The notes beneath the pieces were generated by a model. It saw only the letters and a list, made by a program, of their open reading frames with translations. It searched no databases and was not told the DNA's origin. 64,000 bases of DNA from an uncultured Nitrososphaerota archaeon (GTDB lineage: Archaea; Thermoproteota; Nitrososphaeria; Nitrososphaerales; Nitrosopumilaceae). The DNA is taken from the NCBI GenBank assembly GCA_963824385.1, contig CAWGPD010000004.1, forward strand, positions 160,001 to 224,000. Direction: 5' to 3'. Shown here piece after piece: positions 49,131 to 57,620 of this stretch; position 1 is the stretch's first letter, and each line of letters begins with the position of its first letter. The position numbers were made by a program, and so were the translations under genes.

Positions 49131-50396
49131 TTATTTATATGATACAAGGCCTTTTTTGCCAATATCTGTTCTACAATATTTAGAAGGCCATGTGATAGCA
49201 TCCACTCTGGCATACGCATTTTTTATTGCGTCTTCTAGTGTATCTCCAGTTGCAGTAACTCCCAACACCCTTCCACCACTTGTCAAGACCTTACCATTTA
49301 CTTTTCTTGTACCAGAATGAAAGACCTGTGAGTTAGGAGTTGCAGTATCAAGTCCCAGTATCTCTTCATCTTTTGAATATGATTCAGGATATCCTTTAGA
49401 TGCCAAGACAACACATACCGCACTTTGTTTCTTCCAGGAAATTTGTGGTAGTAAAGATAGAGTTCCATCAATGGTTGCTTGAATATAATCAAACAAGTCA
49501 GATTCCATGCGCATCATTATTGGCTGACATTCCGGGTCGCCCATTCTTGCATTAAACTCCAAGACATATGGCTTGCCATCTTTTAACATTATTCCAGCAT
49601 ACAAAAATCCCTTGAATACAATTCCCTCTTTTTTCATTGATGAAATTGTTTTTTCTATAACATTTTTTTGAATCTCCTTTGCAGTTGAATCGTCAATTAC
49701 AGGAGTTGGAGAATACGTTCCCATCCCACCAGTGTTTAGCCCCTTGTCATCATCATAGATTCTTTTATGATCTTGGCTTGTTGCCATTGGGTATGCGACA
49801 TTTCCATCAGATATTGCAATAAAGGATGCCTCTATTCCATCAATTCTCTCTTCTAGAATAATTCTAGAGCCAGCATTGCCAAAAATTTTCTCAACTAATA
49901 TCTTGTTTATGGCATCAATTGTTTCAGAAGAATTATTGCAGACAATAACTCCTTTCCCTGCAGCAAGCCCATCGGCTTTAACAACTAATGGGTAATCTAC
50001 AGACTTGGCAAATTCAATTGCTTTTTTTGAGTCGTCAAAGACTTCAAACCTTGCAGTCAAGATACCATTTCTTTTCATAAAATTTTTGGCCCAGATCTTG
50101 CTTGATTCTAACTGTGCAGCATTTTTTGTAGGACCAAATATTAAAAGACCTTTTTTTGTAAACTCGTCAACTATGCCCATAGACAATGGAACTTCTGGAC
50201 CTACAACTGTTACACAGTTGTTCTCTTTAGCAAATTTGGTAAGACCTTCAATATCATCCGATGAAACATCCACATTGTTTTGAGTGCCACCATTTCCAGG
50301 GGCAAAGTAAATTTCATCCACTTTATTACTCTGCATAAGCTTCCAGCCCATAGCATGCTCTCTTCCACCAGAGCCTACAACTAGAACATTGACCAA
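49131..50396 (-). CDS. purD: Phosphoribosylamine-glycine ligase
   Basis: GSGGREHA, VVGPE, KADGLAAGKGV, QDHKR, NTGGMG, EFNARMGDPE, GGRVL. Confidence 0.97.
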   Translation of the reverse strand: MVNVLVVGSGGREHAMGWKLMQSNKVDEIYFAPGNGGTQNNVDVSSDDIEGLTKFAKENNCVTVVGPEVPLSMGIVDEFTKKGLLIFGPTKNAAQLESSKIWAKNFMKRNGILTARFEVFDDSKKAIEFAKSVDYPLVVKADGLAAGKGVIVCNNSSETIDAINKILVEKIFGNAGSRIILEERIDGIEASFIAISDGNVAYPMATSQDHKRIYDDDKGLNTGGMGTYSPTPVIDDSTAKEIQKNVIEKTISSMKKEGIVFKGFLYAGIMLKDGKPYVLEFNARMGDPECQPIMMRMESDLFDYIQATIDGTLSLLPQISWKKQSAVCVVLASKGYPESYSKDEEILGLDTATPNSQVFHSGTRKVNGKVLTSGGRVLGVTATGDTLEDAIKNAYARVDAITWPSKYCRTDIGKKGLVSYK

Positions 50397-50478
50397 TGCT
50401 TTCGGCTTTGATTATGAGGTATATAATCCAAGATTGAATTTAGTAATATTGATTAAAGCACTGATTGGATGTACTTTA

Positions 50479-50778
50479 TTGATTAAAGTAGATACAACAA
50501 AAGCTGTTTATCTTTTCACACATGGTAGAAGAGATTTAGAACAAGCCGCAACAGATGCACTTGTTGCAAACGGTTTTGCAAAAGACAAGATTTCATCTGC
50601 AAGACCTGATGCTGTAGGAAATATTGGTGACTACATGGCAATGCTTTGGATGCCACCAACTCCTGACCATATTAAAATCCAAAAAATAACAAAGGTAGAA
50701 GAAGTAAAACCAGAAGGCATGATTGGATTATGGAAAGGAGTATCAAAAGAAGATGTATTTACAATACCTCTAAAGTAA
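50479..50778 (+). CDS. Hypothetical protein
   Basis: TTG start; about 99 aa with coding-like composition. Confidence 0.7.
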   Translation: MIKVDTTKAVYLFTHGRRDLEQAATDALVANGFAKDKISSARPDAVGNIGDYMAMLWMPPTPDHIKIQKITKVEEVKPEGMIGLWKGVSKEDVFTIPLK

Positions 50779-50825
50779 ATCACAAATAATTTTTATTCTC
50801 AATCAAGATTAAGATTGTATATTTT

Positions 50826-51128
50826 CTAAACAAGATCTTGTACCAGTGCCAAAATAAAACTCTCAAACTCGGAATCTTGAAATTTTACCACCTCAATTTT
50901 GTCTTGTTCAATTGCAGTCTTGACTGCACTTAGGTGATAGCATTGCCTTCCCTTTTCCATTGCATTATAGAAATAATCTTCACATGAGCAATATCCTAGA
51001 TTCAAGTCAAGCCAATGCTCATTTTCTTTTCCTACTACAGTCCAGATCTTTCTGTTGCTTGGCTCAAACAGGTGTAATTTTACACCGTTAGACGATATGA
51101 TAGACTCTACATTACCAGTCTCTTTCAC
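50826..51128 (-). CDS. SWIM zinc-finger protein
   Basis: CSC...CYH. Confidence 0.85.
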   Translation of the reverse strand: MKETGNVESIISSNGVKLHLFEPSNRKIWTVVGKENEHWLDLNLGYCSCEDYFYNAMEKGRQCYHLSAVKTAIEQDKIEVVKFQDSEFESFILALVQDLV

Positions 51129-51163
51129 AAGAATTTAATTGAAAAAAGACACGTATATCTTAA

Positions 51164-51910
51164 ATGGTAAAGACCAGAATCATCCCTTCACAACCAGCCT
51201 TAATTTTAGAAGATGTTCAGAAGTTTCTGGTTGTAACTGATTTACACATAGGGTTTGAGCTTGGCATGATCTCAAATGATATCAATGTAAGACCAGAGGA
51301 GATGATTCAAGAGATACATTCCAGTCTCGATTCATTGATTGAATCTGAAAAGCCTGATACGCTAGTTCTCCTGGGAGATGTAAAATCAGGAATAGAGTCA
51401 ATCTCAAATATAGAGTGGCAGACAGTACCAATGTTTTTTGAGATTGGAAAAAAAATCAACACCATAGTAATACCAGGAAATCATGATGGTAACCTGTCCC
51501 GTCTAGTTCCAGATTATGTTACCATGACAGGACCATCAGGTCTAGTCATAGGAGATACATTGTTGACACATGGTCATGTAATGCCATCTGAGAATTTCTC
51601 TCAGATAAATAGAATTGTAATGGGTCATCTCCATCCGGTATATTTTCAAGAAGGCTCTGTCTTGGACGGACAACGATTATGGGTATCAATCAAGGCAGAC
51701 AAGAGCAAAATATTTCCGTCAAGTAAAGGCGAGATCGAGATAATCATCGTTCCCTCTTTTAACAAGTATTTTTATGCCACAACTAAAAGATATCACAGAA
51801 AATCAATCTCTCCAATACTTGAGAGAATAAAAGATCTTTACTCTGCAAAGATTGTGACACTTGATGGAACCATAATTGGGGACGAATCAATACTAAAAAA
51901 TGTAATTTGA
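51164..51910 (+). CDS. Calcineurin-like metallophosphoesterase
   Basis: DLHIG, LGDVK, GNHD, THGH, GHLHP. Confidence 0.9.
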   Translation: MVKTRIIPSQPALILEDVQKFLVVTDLHIGFELGMISNDINVRPEEMIQEIHSSLDSLIESEKPDTLVLLGDVKSGIESISNIEWQTVPMFFEIGKKINTIVIPGNHDGNLSRLVPDYVTMTGPSGLVIGDTLLTHGHVMPSENFSQINRIVMGHLHPVYFQEGSVLDGQRLWVSIKADKSKIFPSSKGEIEIIIVPSFNKYFYATTKRYHRKSISPILERIKDLYSAKIVTLDGTIIGDESILKNVI

Positions 51911-51913
51911 TAT

Positions 51914-54900
51914 CTAGTCTATTTTTTCATATGATTCTAATGGTTTTTTTGTAGTTTCATTATGCTTTAACCACTCCAAAGTCTTTGCAAAAGAATCTGC
52001 AAGTTCTGTAGTTATCAATACAGGAATTCCAAGCTCTACTGCCTTTCTTCTAATTTGATATTCATCATAAAGCATGCCTACATATTTTTCAAGTGTCGAA
52101 GTACTTGGTACATTAATAATAAAATCAATTTTTCGTTCATATAATAAATCTGCAATGTTTGGCTTTCTTTCTGGTTCACTTATTTTATAGACCACTTCGA
52201 CATCCCCTATTCTTTTATCAGACAAAAATTCGGCAGTGTGTTCAGTTGCAAGTAGCTTGTATCCAAGACTTTTGAGTAAAAGCGCAGTCTGCAAGAGTTT
52301 TTCCTTGTTTTCAGAACCACCCGCACTGATAAGTACCGAGCCTTCTTTTGGAAGAGAATATCCTACAGATGTCAGACCCTTTGCAAGTGCATCATAGAAA
52401 CTCTCACCAAAGCATGCCGCCTCACCAGTTGACTGCATCTCTACACCCAATACAACATCTGCCCCCTCTAGCTGCATAAAGGAAAACTGTGGTACTTTGA
52501 TTCCATAATTATGAATTTTACGCCATCTATCTTTTGGGACATGTGGAAGAGGTTTTCCCAATACTGCCCTTGCTGCCAGGTTGATAAGATTCATCCTTAC
52601 AAATTTTGAGACAAATGGCATGGAGCGCGATGCCCTGATGTTAAGTTCTATCACATAGACCTGGTCTTGGTGAATCAAAAATTGCAGGTTAAACGGTCCT
52701 TTGATCTTAAATGCAACAGCCACTTTTTGCGTGTAATCAAGTATAGCATCAATTGCTTTATTGTTTAGAGTCCATGGAGGAATGCACATCATGGAATCAC
52801 CAGAATGCACTCCAGCGCCTTCTATGTGTTCAATTACTGCGCCAATCACAACATGTTCTCCATCTCCCACACCATCAACTTCGGCTTCAAGGGAATTTAG
52901 CATAAATTTTGTAATAACTACTGGATAGTCTGGTGAAACATTGGTTGCTTCTTGAAGATATTTTTTAAGCTGAGTTTCAGACCAGACAACTTTCATTGCA
53001 GCCCCACTTAGTACATAGGACGGTCTGACAAGAACAGGATATCCAACTTTGACTGCAAATTTTTTGGCATCAACAAGACTTGAAAATGCCTGCCATGGAG
53101 GCTGTCGGATATTTAGATCATCAAGTACCTTGCTAAAGGTAGAACGATTTTCCGCTCTATCAATATCTTCAAACGATGTTCCAATAATTTTAATTCCATT
53201 TTGTGCAAGTTTGGGGGTTAGATTATTTGCAGTCTGTCCTCCGACAGCAGTAACAATGCCGTCTAGCTTTTCAAATTCTGCAATATCCAAAACCCGCTCC
53301 AGTGTAAGTTCTTCAAAGTATAACCTATCACATATATCATAATCAGTTGATACTGTCTCTGGATTACAATTAATCACAGATACTTCTTTTACACCATTTT
53401 CTTTTAATCCCCAGACCATGTTTACTGTTCCCCAGTCAAACTCTACACTACTACCTATCCTGTAAGGACCAGCACCAAGTACTGCAATTTTTTGAGAGTC
53501 TGATGTTATCTCAAAGTCGCTAGTCTTTCCACCATATGTCAGATATAGATAGTTGGTCTTGGCAGGCCACTCTGCTGCAAGTGTATCAATTCGTTTTATT
53601 ACGGGTAAAATTCCCTCTTTTTTCCTTATTTTTCTAATCTCGAGGTCGTCTTTTCCAGCAAGCCTTCCAATTTGTTTGTCAGAAAAGCCTAAAATTTTTG
53701 CCTCGTGAAGTACTTCTTTTTCAAGTTTAGACTCTTTGATTCTTTTTTCAGAATTTACTATATTTTGAATTTTTTCTATAAACCACGGGTCAATTGCAGA
53801 TAACTTGTAAATACGCTCAACAGACATCTCTTGTCTTAGTGCCTCTGCCACATAGTACAAGATACGGTCATCAGCATGTTGTAGTTTGTTTTCAATCTCT
53901 TCAATATCGTATTTTTTATCCCCATTACGATTTGCAACTAGACCATCGTTTCCAATTTCAAGCATACGTATTGATTTTTGTAATGATTCTTCAAAGCATC
54001 TTCCAATAGCCATGACCTCACCTACTGATTTCATGGTAGGACCCAAGTTACGATTAGCAAGTTCAAACTTGCCAAAGTCCCATCTAGGATGTTTGCATAC
54101 AATATAATCTAAAGAGGGTTCAAAACATGCAGTTGTAGTTTTGGTGATGCGATTTACAAGTTCTGGTAAAGTATAACCCATTACAATTTTGGCTGCCATG
54201 TATGCAATAGGATATCCAGTGGCTTTACTTGCAAGAGCTGATGAGCGAGAAAGTCGTGGGTTCATCTCAATTGCAACATACGTGTCAGAATTTGGATCTA
54301 GTGCAAACTGGACATTGCATTCTCCAACAATTCCCACATGTTTTGCCGCACGTAATGCCGCAGAACGTAACAATTGATATTCATAATTGTCAAGTGTCTG
54401 CGATGGCGCAACTACAATATTGTCTCCAGTATGTACACGCATTGACAGCACATTTTCCATGTTACAGATTATCACATTGTTTCCGGCATAGTCTGCCATT
54501 ACTTCATACTCGATTTGTTTCCAGTGACCTACATATTCTTCAATTAGGACTTGGCCGACAAGACTTGCATTAAGACCACGTGATACAATTTCATGTAATT
54601 CGATTTCATTATGTGCAACACCACCACCCTTTCCGCCCAAAGTATATGCGACTCTAACAATTACTGGATAACCCAATTCATTTGCAATTTTTTTTGCGTC
54701 CTCAAAGTTGTATACAGTCCTACTTTTAAGAACCGGTACATTGCATGCTATCATTGAATCTTTGAAGAGCTGTCTGTCTTCTGTGGCTTTAATCCCAGAC
54801 ACCTGAGTTCCAAGTACTTTGATGCCATATTTTTTCAAGATCCCAAGTTCATCTAGTTTTACTCCACAGTTGAGTGCTGTCTGACCTCCAAAGCCAAGCA

Positions 54901-55181
54901 TTAGACCATCTGGCCTTTCTGCTTCTATGATAGATTCCACATATGCAGGATTTACTGGAATAGAGTATACCTTGTCTGCAAATCTTGTATCAGTTTGAAT
55001 TGTTGCAATGTTTGGATTTACAAGTACACTCTTGATTCCGTCTTCCTGGATGGCTTTGAGGCATTGGCTACCGGAGTAGTCGAATTGACGGCCACTTGAA
55101 GTGACTTTCGCCTGCTTCTCCGATTTTAATTGCCCCACTGCCAAGAACTAGAATCTTCTTTAACGACTCATCTTTTGGCAT
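51914..55181 (-). CDS. carB: Carbamoyl-phosphate synthase large subunit; exon 1 55181-55107, exon 2 55084-51914 (1081 aa if joined)
   Basis: ATG 55181 follows a GGGGAGG SD. MPKDESLKKILVLGSGAIKIGEAGE joins FDYSGSQCLKA once 22 nt are removed. Two ATP-grasp halves and an MGS domain. Confidence 0.95.
55085..55106 (-). other. Putative 22-nt bulge-helix-bulge intron in carB pre-mRNA
   Basis: mRNA reads GGCG-AAA-GUCACU(UCA)AGUGGC-CGUC-AAU. Cutting after the second nucleotide of each bulge gives GGC GAA UUC GAC. Confidence 0.85.
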
Positions 55182-56340
55182 TGTCCTCCCCTATGAGTTT
55201 CTTGAGCTCTTCAAAAATAAACATGCAATCAAAAGGTCCAGGCGATGCCTCTGGATGAAATTGTACAGCGATTATCTTTTTTTGTTTGTGTTTTATTCCT
55301 TCTACGGTTTTATCATCTGCATTTGTAAACCATAATTTAAAATCAGTATTTTTCAAAGATTCTGGGTCAATACAATATCCATGATTTTGACTAGTAACAT
55401 AGACTTGATTGTTGTCAAGATCAATACAAGATTTGTTTTGTCCTCTGTGGCCATACTTTAGCTTGTATGTATTTGCACCACCTGCCAGTCCCAAGATTTG
55501 TGCACCAAGACAAATTCCTAGTGTTGGAATATTTTTTTCAATGAGTGATTTTGCAGTCTTCATTGTTTCGGCACACTTGAGTGGATCTCCGGGACCGTTT
55601 GAAATTACAACTCCTTTTGGATCATATGATAAAATTTTCTCAATTGAATAATTCCATGGAACTTTGATTACCTTGTAACCCAATCTACGAACATTTCGCA
55701 ATATGGCATTTTTTACTCCAGTGTCAATTACTACAATGGATTGAGATTCTGAACCAAATGTTTGTGGTTCTTTTGTAGATACAGTATTCATAAACTCCTC
55801 ATCATTGTATTTTTTCACTGATGTCAACTTCTTTTTAAGTTCAGATACATCAATTGGAGTATCAGATACTGCAAGTGCTGCCATCATAACTCCGCTTGTT
55901 CTAAGTTTTATTGTAAGTTCCCGAGTATCAATTCCTGAAATTCCTGGAATTTTTTCATTATAGAGCCATTCATCAAGTGTCATCGATAAATTCCAGTGAC
56001 TTGCAGTAAGGGATAATTCATGCACAACTAGTCCTCTTGCCTGTATCATTTCAGATTCAAAGTTCTTTCTCATACCATCAGAGTCTTTTGCCATAGGATC
56101 CGGAACTCCATAGTTTCCCACGAGTGGATAGGTAAGTGTCAGAATCTGGCCGCTATAGGAAGGGTCTGTGAGTGCCTCAGTATAGCCAGTCATGCCAGTA
56201 TTGAATACTGCTTCACCAAAGACAGTAGTAGAATAACCAAATCCCATGCCCTCAAAAACAGTCCCATCTTCTAAGATCAATATACCAAACTTTTTTGCAT
56301 GTTTGGCTTTTTTTGTCGGAATCCTTGAAACCCTCTGCAT
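55168..56340 (-). CDS. carA: Carbamoyl-phosphate synthase small subunit
   Basis: GEAVFNTGMTGY, TDPSY, SNGPGDP, GICLG, GHRG, SQNHG, QFHPEASPGP. Confidence 0.97.
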   Translation of the reverse strand: MQRVSRIPTKKAKHAKKFGILILEDGTVFEGMGFGYSTTVFGEAVFNTGMTGYTEALTDPSYSGQILTLTYPLVGNYGVPDPMAKDSDGMRKNFESEMIQARGLVVHELSLTASHWNLSMTLDEWLYNEKIPGISGIDTRELTIKLRTSGVMMAALAVSDTPIDVSELKKKLTSVKKYNDEEFMNTVSTKEPQTFGSESQSIVVIDTGVKNAILRNVRRLGYKVIKVPWNYSIEKILSYDPKGVVISNGPGDPLKCAETMKTAKSLIEKNIPTLGICLGAQILGLAGGANTYKLKYGHRGQNKSCIDLDNNQVYVTSQNHGYCIDPESLKNTDFKLWFTNADDKTVEGIKHKQKKIIAVQFHPEASPGPFDCMFIFEELKKLIGEDNAKR

Positions 56341-56433
56341 GTGGATTTTGATAGGAATTTAAATTTTATGCCGATCTAAATTTTCAAAATAGAAATTTCC
56401 ATCAACTAGGACAAAATTTTTAAAAAATAAAAT

Positions 56434-57620
56434 CTAGAGTGCTTTGAATTGTTCAGTCCACTTGTAGTATGCCCTAATCATTTCCATACTAACACTTGGT
56501 TTTCTTCTTGATATTATCTCTTTGAAGTCAGCAGTTGTAAGTACTCTGGGTTGTGATTTTGGCTCTCCTAATACTTCTTCTCCAAAGTTTGGAGAGTGGA
56601 ATAAATCATTTACAACCATTAGTTGTGCTGATTGGCAGATGTCTTTGACATCAGATGCGCTGTATCCATCTGCAAGTTTTGCAAGTTCCATTGCCTTTAC
56701 TTTATCGTCCTTGTGCAATGGAGCAGTATAGAGATTAAAAAGTGCCTCTCTTGCTTCAAGTGACGGAAGTGAAACATAAACCCTCTTGGTGAATCTTCTA
56801 AGAAATGGCCAATCAAGACTCCATGGTTTGTTTGTTGCACCAATAACATAGAGTTTAAGATCTTTTCCTTTTCCGTTGATTCCATCCATCTCGGTTAAGA
56901 ATTGGTTTTTGACACGAATCTCGCCACCAATCTCACTGTTACGGTTACCAAGAAGTGAATCTACTTCATCGATGAATAATATAACTGGGAGTCCCTCTTT
57001 TTCTGCCAATCCCCTTGCCATCTGGAATAGCTTGGATACATTTTTTTCAGACTTCGCCTAGCCACTTGCTCATCATGGATGCGGCATCTACATTGATAAA
57101 ATAACCATCAATCTCATTTGCAGTAGCTGCTGCAATGACTGTCTTTCCACAGCCCGGTGGACCATAAAGTAAGATTCCTCTTGGCCATCCAAGTGGAAAC
57201 AAGTCTGGTCTCTTTGCAGGATATACAATTGATTCTCGTAAAGCATTCTTTGCATCGTCTAAACCGATAACTTCTTGCCATGTTACATTGGGTTTTTCCT
57301 TCATTATCAGAGAGTCTAGTTCATTTTTGGTAAGAGATTGCTTTTGCTCTTCAGGAGTTGCTTTGGGATCTACAGCTGGCTCCAATTCAACATTGTTCAT
57401 CTGTAATGCCTTGATGCGATTCTGGTATGCGGCTGTTCTCTCTTGATATACTCTGTTTAGTTTGTTTTCTGGATAAAGCTGGATTAATTTAACAAGTGAT
57501 TCAATCGCCCTTTGGTAATTTGCAATTGCCATTCCTCTGGCACCTTGAGAATCAAGACTTTATTGCCTCTGCGGCAAATTTGCTTGCACTATTTTCCAAT
57601 TCTTGAGGAGCTAGACTCAT
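56434..57620 (-). CDS. cdvC: Vps4-like AAA+ ATPase CdvC; frameshifts near 57557 and 57052
   Basis: N-terminal MIT-like region from MSLAPQELENSASKFAAEAIK; GILLYGPPGCGKT, SKWLGE, FIDEVD, GATNKPW-x-LD...RRF. Confidence 0.9.

Follow-up and report, generated by a model that had tools for sequence, protein, structure and literature searches.

The 5' end of carB in an uncultured Nitrososphaerota archaeon (genome G000) raises a question. How is a complete CarB made when the 1056-codon body of the gene, which starts at 55084, lies in a different frame from the 37-codon frame that is opened by its ATG? The window analysed here is the whole stretch of 64,000 nucleotides, and positions refer to it unless another contig is named. 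By comparison with intron-less orthologues, an insert of 22 nt sits between the codons for Glu25, which we take to line the carbamate tunnel, and Phe26. An earlier note on this DNA described a 37-aa ORF of the unspliced mRNA and a carB start within the last 14 nt of carA, and both were correct when the sequence was rechecked. The coding features are these:

55168..56340, minus strand: carA, encoding the CPSase small subunit of 390 aa, with its stop codon (55170-55168) 14 nt into carB
55107..55181, minus strand: carB exon 1, ATG through Glu25 (25 codons), placed by homology to intron-less orthologues
51914..55084, minus strand: carB exon 2, 1056 codons, the first residue corresponding to Phe26 of E. 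coli CarB
55068..55181, minus strand: dead-end reading frame of the unspliced mRNA, 37 aa, ending SHFKWPSIRLLR

The spliced CarB is 1081 aa long. Its partner in the carB tree is a record named Nitrosotalea (support 100/95), and Nitrosotalea names are also present in the protein cluster of this CarB. The neighbouring regions (49131-51910 and 56434-57532) contain purD, a SWIM-finger protein and a phosphoesterase-like ORF, and an AAA ATPase ORF near 57050 is split across two frames. Elsewhere in the assembly, G000:C1 at about 303400-305500 has a G+C content far above that of the genome and is perhaps foreign DNA or contamination. A promoter scan, which used a bacterial consensus, was uninformative.

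The change of frame could reflect an assembly error or a dead gene, and the assembly does contain at least one likely indel error elsewhere, in rtcB. The probability of this explanation is practically negligible. An insert of 19-22 nt is common to all 56 matched genomes of the genus (63 were searched) and is therefore no artefact, as the earlier note had argued. Exon 2 is open over its 1056 codons and belongs to the single carB copy in the assembly, which also speaks against a dead gene.

The insert extends well beyond the genus, with its position in the gene conserved. It is present in 109 of the 115 matched genomes of family f15 (141 searched), and at the level of the order 312 of 401 genomes were matched, with both intron states among the 150 places listed. 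A contig scan of all genomes found at least 119 loci, of which at least 110 are carB with such an insert; 6 of the 119, which are not carB, were left out of the counts, as were L094 (a duplication), L105 (a run of N) and L116 (a bacterial palindrome). Among the matches listed, insert carriers include records named Micrarchaeota, Woesearchaeota, Thermoplasmata, Methanomassiliicoccales and Methanosarcinales. In L116, from a record named Chryseobacterium, a palindrome of 20 nt is inserted at this codon boundary; it is not BHB-like, and beyond it the frame soon leaves CarB. L124, from a record named Heimdallarchaeota, is a 2.5-kb contig with a carB nearly identical to that of marine Nitrosopumilaceae and is likely a binning error.

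The inserts are 17-38 nt long and are spread over all three phases. Every version brings a frameshift or a stop. An in-frame stop is found in 48 of 48 distinct 3n introns, and the other two frames contain one in 1 and 11 of 42. In a tree of 143 rows, computed with rough support from a short alignment that left out the stem, there are 20 changes of intron state, at least 12 of them on well-supported branches; many lineages therefore live without the intron. CarB N-termini are wrong or shortened in public records of the group (1046 and 1074 aa forms), and records P0002, P0004 and P0013 have either a false N-terminus in the wrong frame or a protein cut to 1046 aa.

The insert and its immediate flanks can be drawn as a bulge-helix-bulge (BHB) with the following parts:

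55085..55106, minus strand: predicted BHB-type intron, 22 nt, with predicted cuts between 55107 and 55106 and between 55085 and 55084, after the second base of each 3-nt bulge
55087..55112, minus strand: BHB central helix, exon GGCG (55112-55109) with intron CGUC (55090-55087)
55108-55106 and 55086-55084, minus strand: BHB bulges, 3 nt each
55091..55105, minus strand: intron hairpin GUCAC/GUGGC with a 5-nt loop

Excision at the predicted cut points restores the carB frame. The anatomy is well preserved. Of 151 distinct genes, 139 have all four pairs of the central helix and the other 12 have three; its compensatory forms are GGUG/CACY and GCCG/CGGC. An intron-side helix of 3-11 pairs is present in all 151. 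The exon-side pair next to the bulge is present in 112 of the 151 genes and is followed by a small loop before the long helix, which is a relaxed BHB. In an alignment of 89 sequences, each with a different intron of at most 23 nt, compensatory change is seen in all 5 pairs of the intron hairpin, and the covariation score was reached by none of 500 shuffles. The hairpin cells are paired in 90% of cases, as against 29-45% when the partners are slid by 1-3 columns. An unconstrained consensus fold returns the BHB together with the inner exon helix. In G000 itself the central helix has a probability of about 0.13 and is absent from the lowest-energy fold; in relatives the median probability is 0.82, and it exceeds 0.5 in 96 of 145. 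Rfam gave no family match up to an E value of 5 within 54500-56500. A group I or II intron, a riboswitch or another Rfam family was rejected on this basis and on the size of the insert, which is just 22 nt. We conclude that the insert is very likely a BHB intron that is excised from the mRNA in the manner of a tRNA intron.

Three public sequences bear on the removal. L054, L057 and L060 come from f15 relatives, are 97-99% identical to intron-bearing genomes and belong to records unlabelled as RNA or DNA. Over 2990 columns L054 shares 97.4% identity with G494, and it lacks the 27-nt intron at the sole possible cut points. Its 5' end is at the start of carA and its 3' end, judged by length, about 190 nt beyond the carB stop, as a two-gene transcript would have. 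L057 differs from L107 by 4 mismatches in 532 besides a missing 32-nt intron, and L060 from L158 by 5 in 453 besides a missing 25-nt intron. No close genome for L057 above 70% was found in g48 and five other groups; the match to L107 came from named records. The piece missing from all three has the same boundaries as the predicted cuts. They are probably spliced cDNA, to judge from the sequences, and a recent exact loss of the intron from the DNA behind them is possible. Exact excision of the carB intron is strongly indicated by these alignments.

A scan for the exon-exon junction returned 11 contigs, of which 8 are unrelated intron-less genes and none belongs to the genus of G000. In RNA libraries, 4 of 4 contigs of relatives that bridge the site retain the intron (three studies, depth 3-4, with DNA carry-over possible), and a spliced joint was absent from the RNA-library matches listed (contigs from 4 of 24 runs, depth 2-4). 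These contigs are shallow and possibly DNA, and are therefore no measure of splicing. The scarcity of spliced RNA from the genus, none among the 11 junction contigs and the 4 RNA-library contigs, would agree with a ribosome that skips the insert by bypass or frameshift, the intron-less contigs then being alleles after loss. This is highly improbable: the inserts occur in all three phases with one BHB geometry, the borders of the gap in L054 are precisely the BHB cut points, and a shared take-off and landing codon is absent.

The genome encodes the expected enzymes, with two genes of the EndA family (PF01974) and an rtcB. A 1-nt insertion close to the YDV.HN motif splits the rtcB gene (G000:C3:196812-198120; L267 and L268). 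This frameshift is without counterpart in the 3 relatives matched out of 5 searched and is probably an assembly error, given these comparisons. A second intron in rtcB was considered and ruled out, as the insertion is of 1 nt and is not in the three matched relatives. Introns are present in 8 of the 39 tRNA calls. The cbf5 gene of G000 is uninterrupted and thus has no intron. A genome-wide scan for BHB introns in mRNA gave 21,878 motif hits, of which 926 would join a frame and 198 have an exon duplex below -12. By exon duplex energy carB ranks first of the 926, and it alone was convincing among the best 45 when these were judged by eye.

The exons on either side of the intron pair with each other over a considerable length:

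55070..55124, minus strand: inner exon helix, 55124-55118 with 55076-55070, plus AG/CU, 55116-55115 with 55079-55078
55051..55143, minus strand: outer exon helices, 55137-55131 with 55063-55057 and 55143-55140 with 55054-55051

The pairings listed in the earlier note are all present, namely AUCGGAG (55124-55118) with CUCCGGU (55076-55070), AG with CU, (U)GGGGCA with UGCCUC(A), and UGGC with GCCA. Each of the 20 exon pairs has a predicted probability of 0.78-1.0. Across the alignment 96.6% of cells are paired in the inner helix and 81% in the outer helices. The outermost UGGC/GCCA helix, of four pairs, is lineage-limited and lies outside the alignment consensus.

The 121-nt fold has an energy of -38.5 kcal/mol (z -3.2), and none of 200 dinucleotide shuffles was equally stable. 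Folding stronger than that of shuffled sequence, which the earlier note proposed as a check of its stem, holds also against synonymous resampling at genome codon usage (z -3.5; 4 of 2000). With uniform codons the value is z -1.9 (74 of 2000) and with GC3-rich codons z -0.8 (416 of 2000). The excess is thus carried by C/G-ending codons. An excess of such codons had been remarked before and is borne out by the count: 13 of the 25 stem codons end in G or C where 5.9 are expected, and the GC3 of carB exon 2 overall is 0.28. Among control windows in exon 2, 2 of 25 have z below -2.

Such a stem might be a by-product of the protein motif and of G+C content, unselected, beside a real intron. The stem is in register with the codons, second positions lying opposite second positions. 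Part of it is therefore given by the protein and recurs in intron-less genes, where the second-position pairs are identical; half of the exon stem is fixed by the protein. The ordinary stability against GC3-rich codons would fit this reading, as would the lack of double changes in the inner helix and the z values near 0 in two G+C-rich Thermoplasmata genes. It is nevertheless very unlikely. Synonymous entropy in the core stem codons is 0.43 in intron-bearing and 0.94 in intron-less genes, so third positions are fixed in the intron-bearing genes only, and downstream control codons are alike in both (0.87 and 0.91). In g24 the exon duplex is -24.5 kcal/mol in 6 genomes with the intron and -8.9 in 20 genomes without it. 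The by-product reading is already largely refuted by these data.

Further comparisons of genes with and without the intron agree. The exon duplex was compared with synonymous resampling at each gene's own third-base usage, and three twin-intron loci were omitted from the stem tests. Intron-bearing genes average z -3.25, with 115 of 144 below -2; for intron-less genes the average is -0.06, with 4 of 68 below -2. Entropy in the outer helices is 0.74 with the intron and 0.90 without it, and loop codons stay free. In all 6 within-group contrasts the stem is stronger with the intron. A strong stem tracks the intron on 11 independent pairs (7.1 for, 0.7 against; median p 0.039, range 0.004-0.29).

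Two signals named in the earlier note fared differently. Covariation is found in the intron hairpin (5 of 5 pairs) and is scarce in the exon helices, where compensatory double changes occur in 0 of 9 inner and 2 of 11 outer pairs. Synonymous-site conservation holds up, with stem codons fixed only where the intron is present, and so does the selection on synonymous sites that the earlier note had claimed. The constraint on the stem consists of conservation and G-C to G-U changes rather than double changes. The exon stem is under selection and is held by conserved codon choice. In folding models the stem brings a modest rise in the probability of the BHB, from a median of 0.65 to one of 0.81, and the value is higher with it in 98 of 179. 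With this weak effect in the model, and with the BHB a minor conformer in G000, a role as scaffold is inferred from selection and not from energy.

[quoted passage not shown] The flanking exons would zip into the stem and hold the splice motif, taking the role of the tRNA body. EndA would then cut the intron and RtcB would seal the exons, as a housekeeping step. The stop or frameshift carried by each intron may serve as a fail-safe, so that no CarB is made with extra residues in a conserved motif. The site itself may have been favoured because the protein motif already folds back at second codon positions.

The earlier note went further and suggested possible control of CPSase by splicing, with ribosomes on exon 1 competing with folding. 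Spelled out here, ribosomes on exon 1 would unwind the stem and end at the intron stop, and the spliced fraction, and with it CPSase, would rise when translation across the junction of carA and carB slows or when EndA and RtcB are free. This is possible, if on the doubtful side. In a simulated ribosome footprint the stem is intact up to codon 10, is without its outer helix at codon 13 and without its inner helix at codon 16. The modelled footprint thus melts the stem from about codon 13-16, and competition between ribosomes and folding is therefore physically possible. The first stop is inside the intron in 109 of 145 genes, and 42 of 64 distinct frameshifting introns, which would not need a stop, have one. 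The retention of the intron in RNA-library contigs of relatives would also fit control by splicing, although these contigs may be DNA carry-over, and a role as negative regulator has been proposed for the cbf5 intron (PMC2738675).

Start codons point in the same direction. In several lineages the start position is occupied by CTG, GCG, TCG or ATA in genes with the intron and by ATG, GTG or TTG in their kin without it. Such non-standard codons are found in 6 of 6 intron-bearing and 0 of 20 intron-less genes in g24, and in 4 of 4 and 0 of 1 in g28. The counts are 14 of 14 and 0 of 6 in g63, and 2 of 2 and 0 of 2 in f13. However, the trend is non-significant when only independent pairs are counted (5.6 for, 1.0 against; median p 0.125), f10 does not show it, and the genus of G000 has ATG in 31 of 31. 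Weak starts would equally suit a housekeeping step whose stem has to be shielded from ribosomes. The loci concerned are L289-L302 (g63), L269-L278 (g24 and g28), and L039 and L280 (f13). A single C-to-U change would turn GCG, TCG or CTG into a standard start. These codons and ATA could mean weak initiation, a start further down or, which is unlikely, RNA editing.

Other features also weigh against a control step. There is no conserved sensor codon or leader, and the tails that read-through would add differ between genes, with SR, S, SH, SQ and longer ones among them. Arg codons are missing from exon 1 of G000, and the intron state changed repeatedly on the tree, leaving many lineages without an intron to control. 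An out-of-frame Met-Ser-Arg-stop ORF (55171-55160, minus strand), whose ATG overlaps the carA stop, is present in 25 of 32 loci tested in the genus and its kin; its Ser codon is rare in G000 (4%). As an arginine sensor it was rejected, as it fails to follow the intron on independent pairs (p 1).

The intron stops and the weak starts all fit a housekeeping design in which the substrate is protected from ribosomes and unspliced RNA is harmless. A fuller version of the control proposal holds that a once-mobile tRNA-type intron was domesticated in ammonia-oxidising archaea as a translation-sensitive switch, made of the stem, the intron stop and the weakened start, through which ribosome traffic and EndA/RtcB capacity set the amount of CPSase. 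We think this rather unlikely. If it were true, it would be the first regulated mRNA splicing in archaeal metabolism.

Whatever its present function, the carB intron has neighbours that bear on its origin. In 4 of 5 loci from outside the ammonia-oxidising archaea (AOA), a LAGLIDADG-like gene above the Pfam cut-off lies directly upstream of carB:

L310-L313: LAGLIDADG-like genes, free-standing and 350-490 codons long, upstream of carB

In L310 the LAGLIDADG-like open frame continues into carB exon 1. In G000 no LAGLIDADG gene was found in an assembly that is 86% complete, and carA overlaps carB instead. L148, L177 and L191 have a second hairpin insert of about 29-30 nt in the GSGA-LKIG motif of exon 1, upstream of the main intron. 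If it were excised at relaxed BHB-like points, the frame would be restored, giving twin introns in a short exon. The twin-insert loci come from these non-AOA lineages. We infer a mobile origin of the intron, with later loss of the endonuclease. It would have begun as an element travelling with a free-standing LAGLIDADG gene that was lost from the lineage of G000.

CarB is the entry enzyme of arginine and pyrimidine synthesis, and the groups that host the intron include abundant soil and marine ammonia oxidisers and several phyla. With a second intron in a coding region, splicing of mRNA would gain a wider place in the biology of archaea. Closely related genomes that differ in the intron are natural pairs for asking whether introns regulate, which has been a question since cbf5. 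The adjacent LAGLIDADG genes suggest a possible route for the spread of ORF-less BHB introns, a point left open by the cbf5 study (PMC2738675).

The closest known system is the cbf5 intron of Desulfurococcales and Sulfolobales, the report of which confirmed no other pre-mRNA splicing and proposed a regulatory role (PMC2738675). Both introns are short (16-44 nt in cbf5, 17-38 nt in carB) and lie within a conserved coding motif. Both have a relaxed BHB, a cut after the second base of the bulge, a variable inner loop and repeated losses. Unlike cbf5, which encodes an RNA-modifying enzyme, the host here is a metabolic enzyme, and the carB intron is spread over mesophilic ammonia oxidisers and several other phyla. 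All in-frame carB introns hold a stop, whereas some cbf5 introns keep the frame and break a catalytic codon. A LAGLIDADG gene adjoins carB in some lineages, which is also unlike cbf5, and selection on the exon stem has been measured here for carB. A BHB intron in the 5' UTR of HVO_1309 of Haloferax volcanii likewise makes an mRNA a substrate of the splicing endonuclease, as we propose for carB; the accessible text of that report names cbf5 as the sole other mRNA case (PMC7714728). The HVO_1309 intron is described there as non-coding and from one species, whereas that of carB is in a coding region.

Neither carB nor further mRNA introns are mentioned in the accessible text of PMC12397907 and bioRxiv 10.64898/2026.10.13.758758, and splicing is absent from the account of CPSase control in the corresponding part of PMC6245113. 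No published report of a carB intron was found in the literature searched, which excluded most subscription journals and all supplements. The carB intron is apparently the second coding-region BHB intron of archaea, after cbf5, and unpublished.

Archaeal tRNA and rRNA introns share the BHB motif with carB and presumably the same enzymes. They differ in that the outer helix of carB is made of codons and its intron encodes no endonuclease. The phage introns that spread by collaborative homing are group I introns. They resemble the carB case, as far as the accessible part of the report goes, in pairing an ORF-less intron with an endonuclease gene, which at carB lies beside the first exon in the non-AOA loci (PMC10448857). 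The carB intron differs from them as a putatively protein-spliced intron of a cellular gene, with no such endonuclease gene in the 86% complete assembly of G000. Ciliate 3n introns, in the accessible portion of their description, contain stops such that retention yields no full-length protein, as in carB (PMC5014332). Those introns are spliceosomal and tied to nonsense-mediated decay, whereas carB presents one intron across many genomes.
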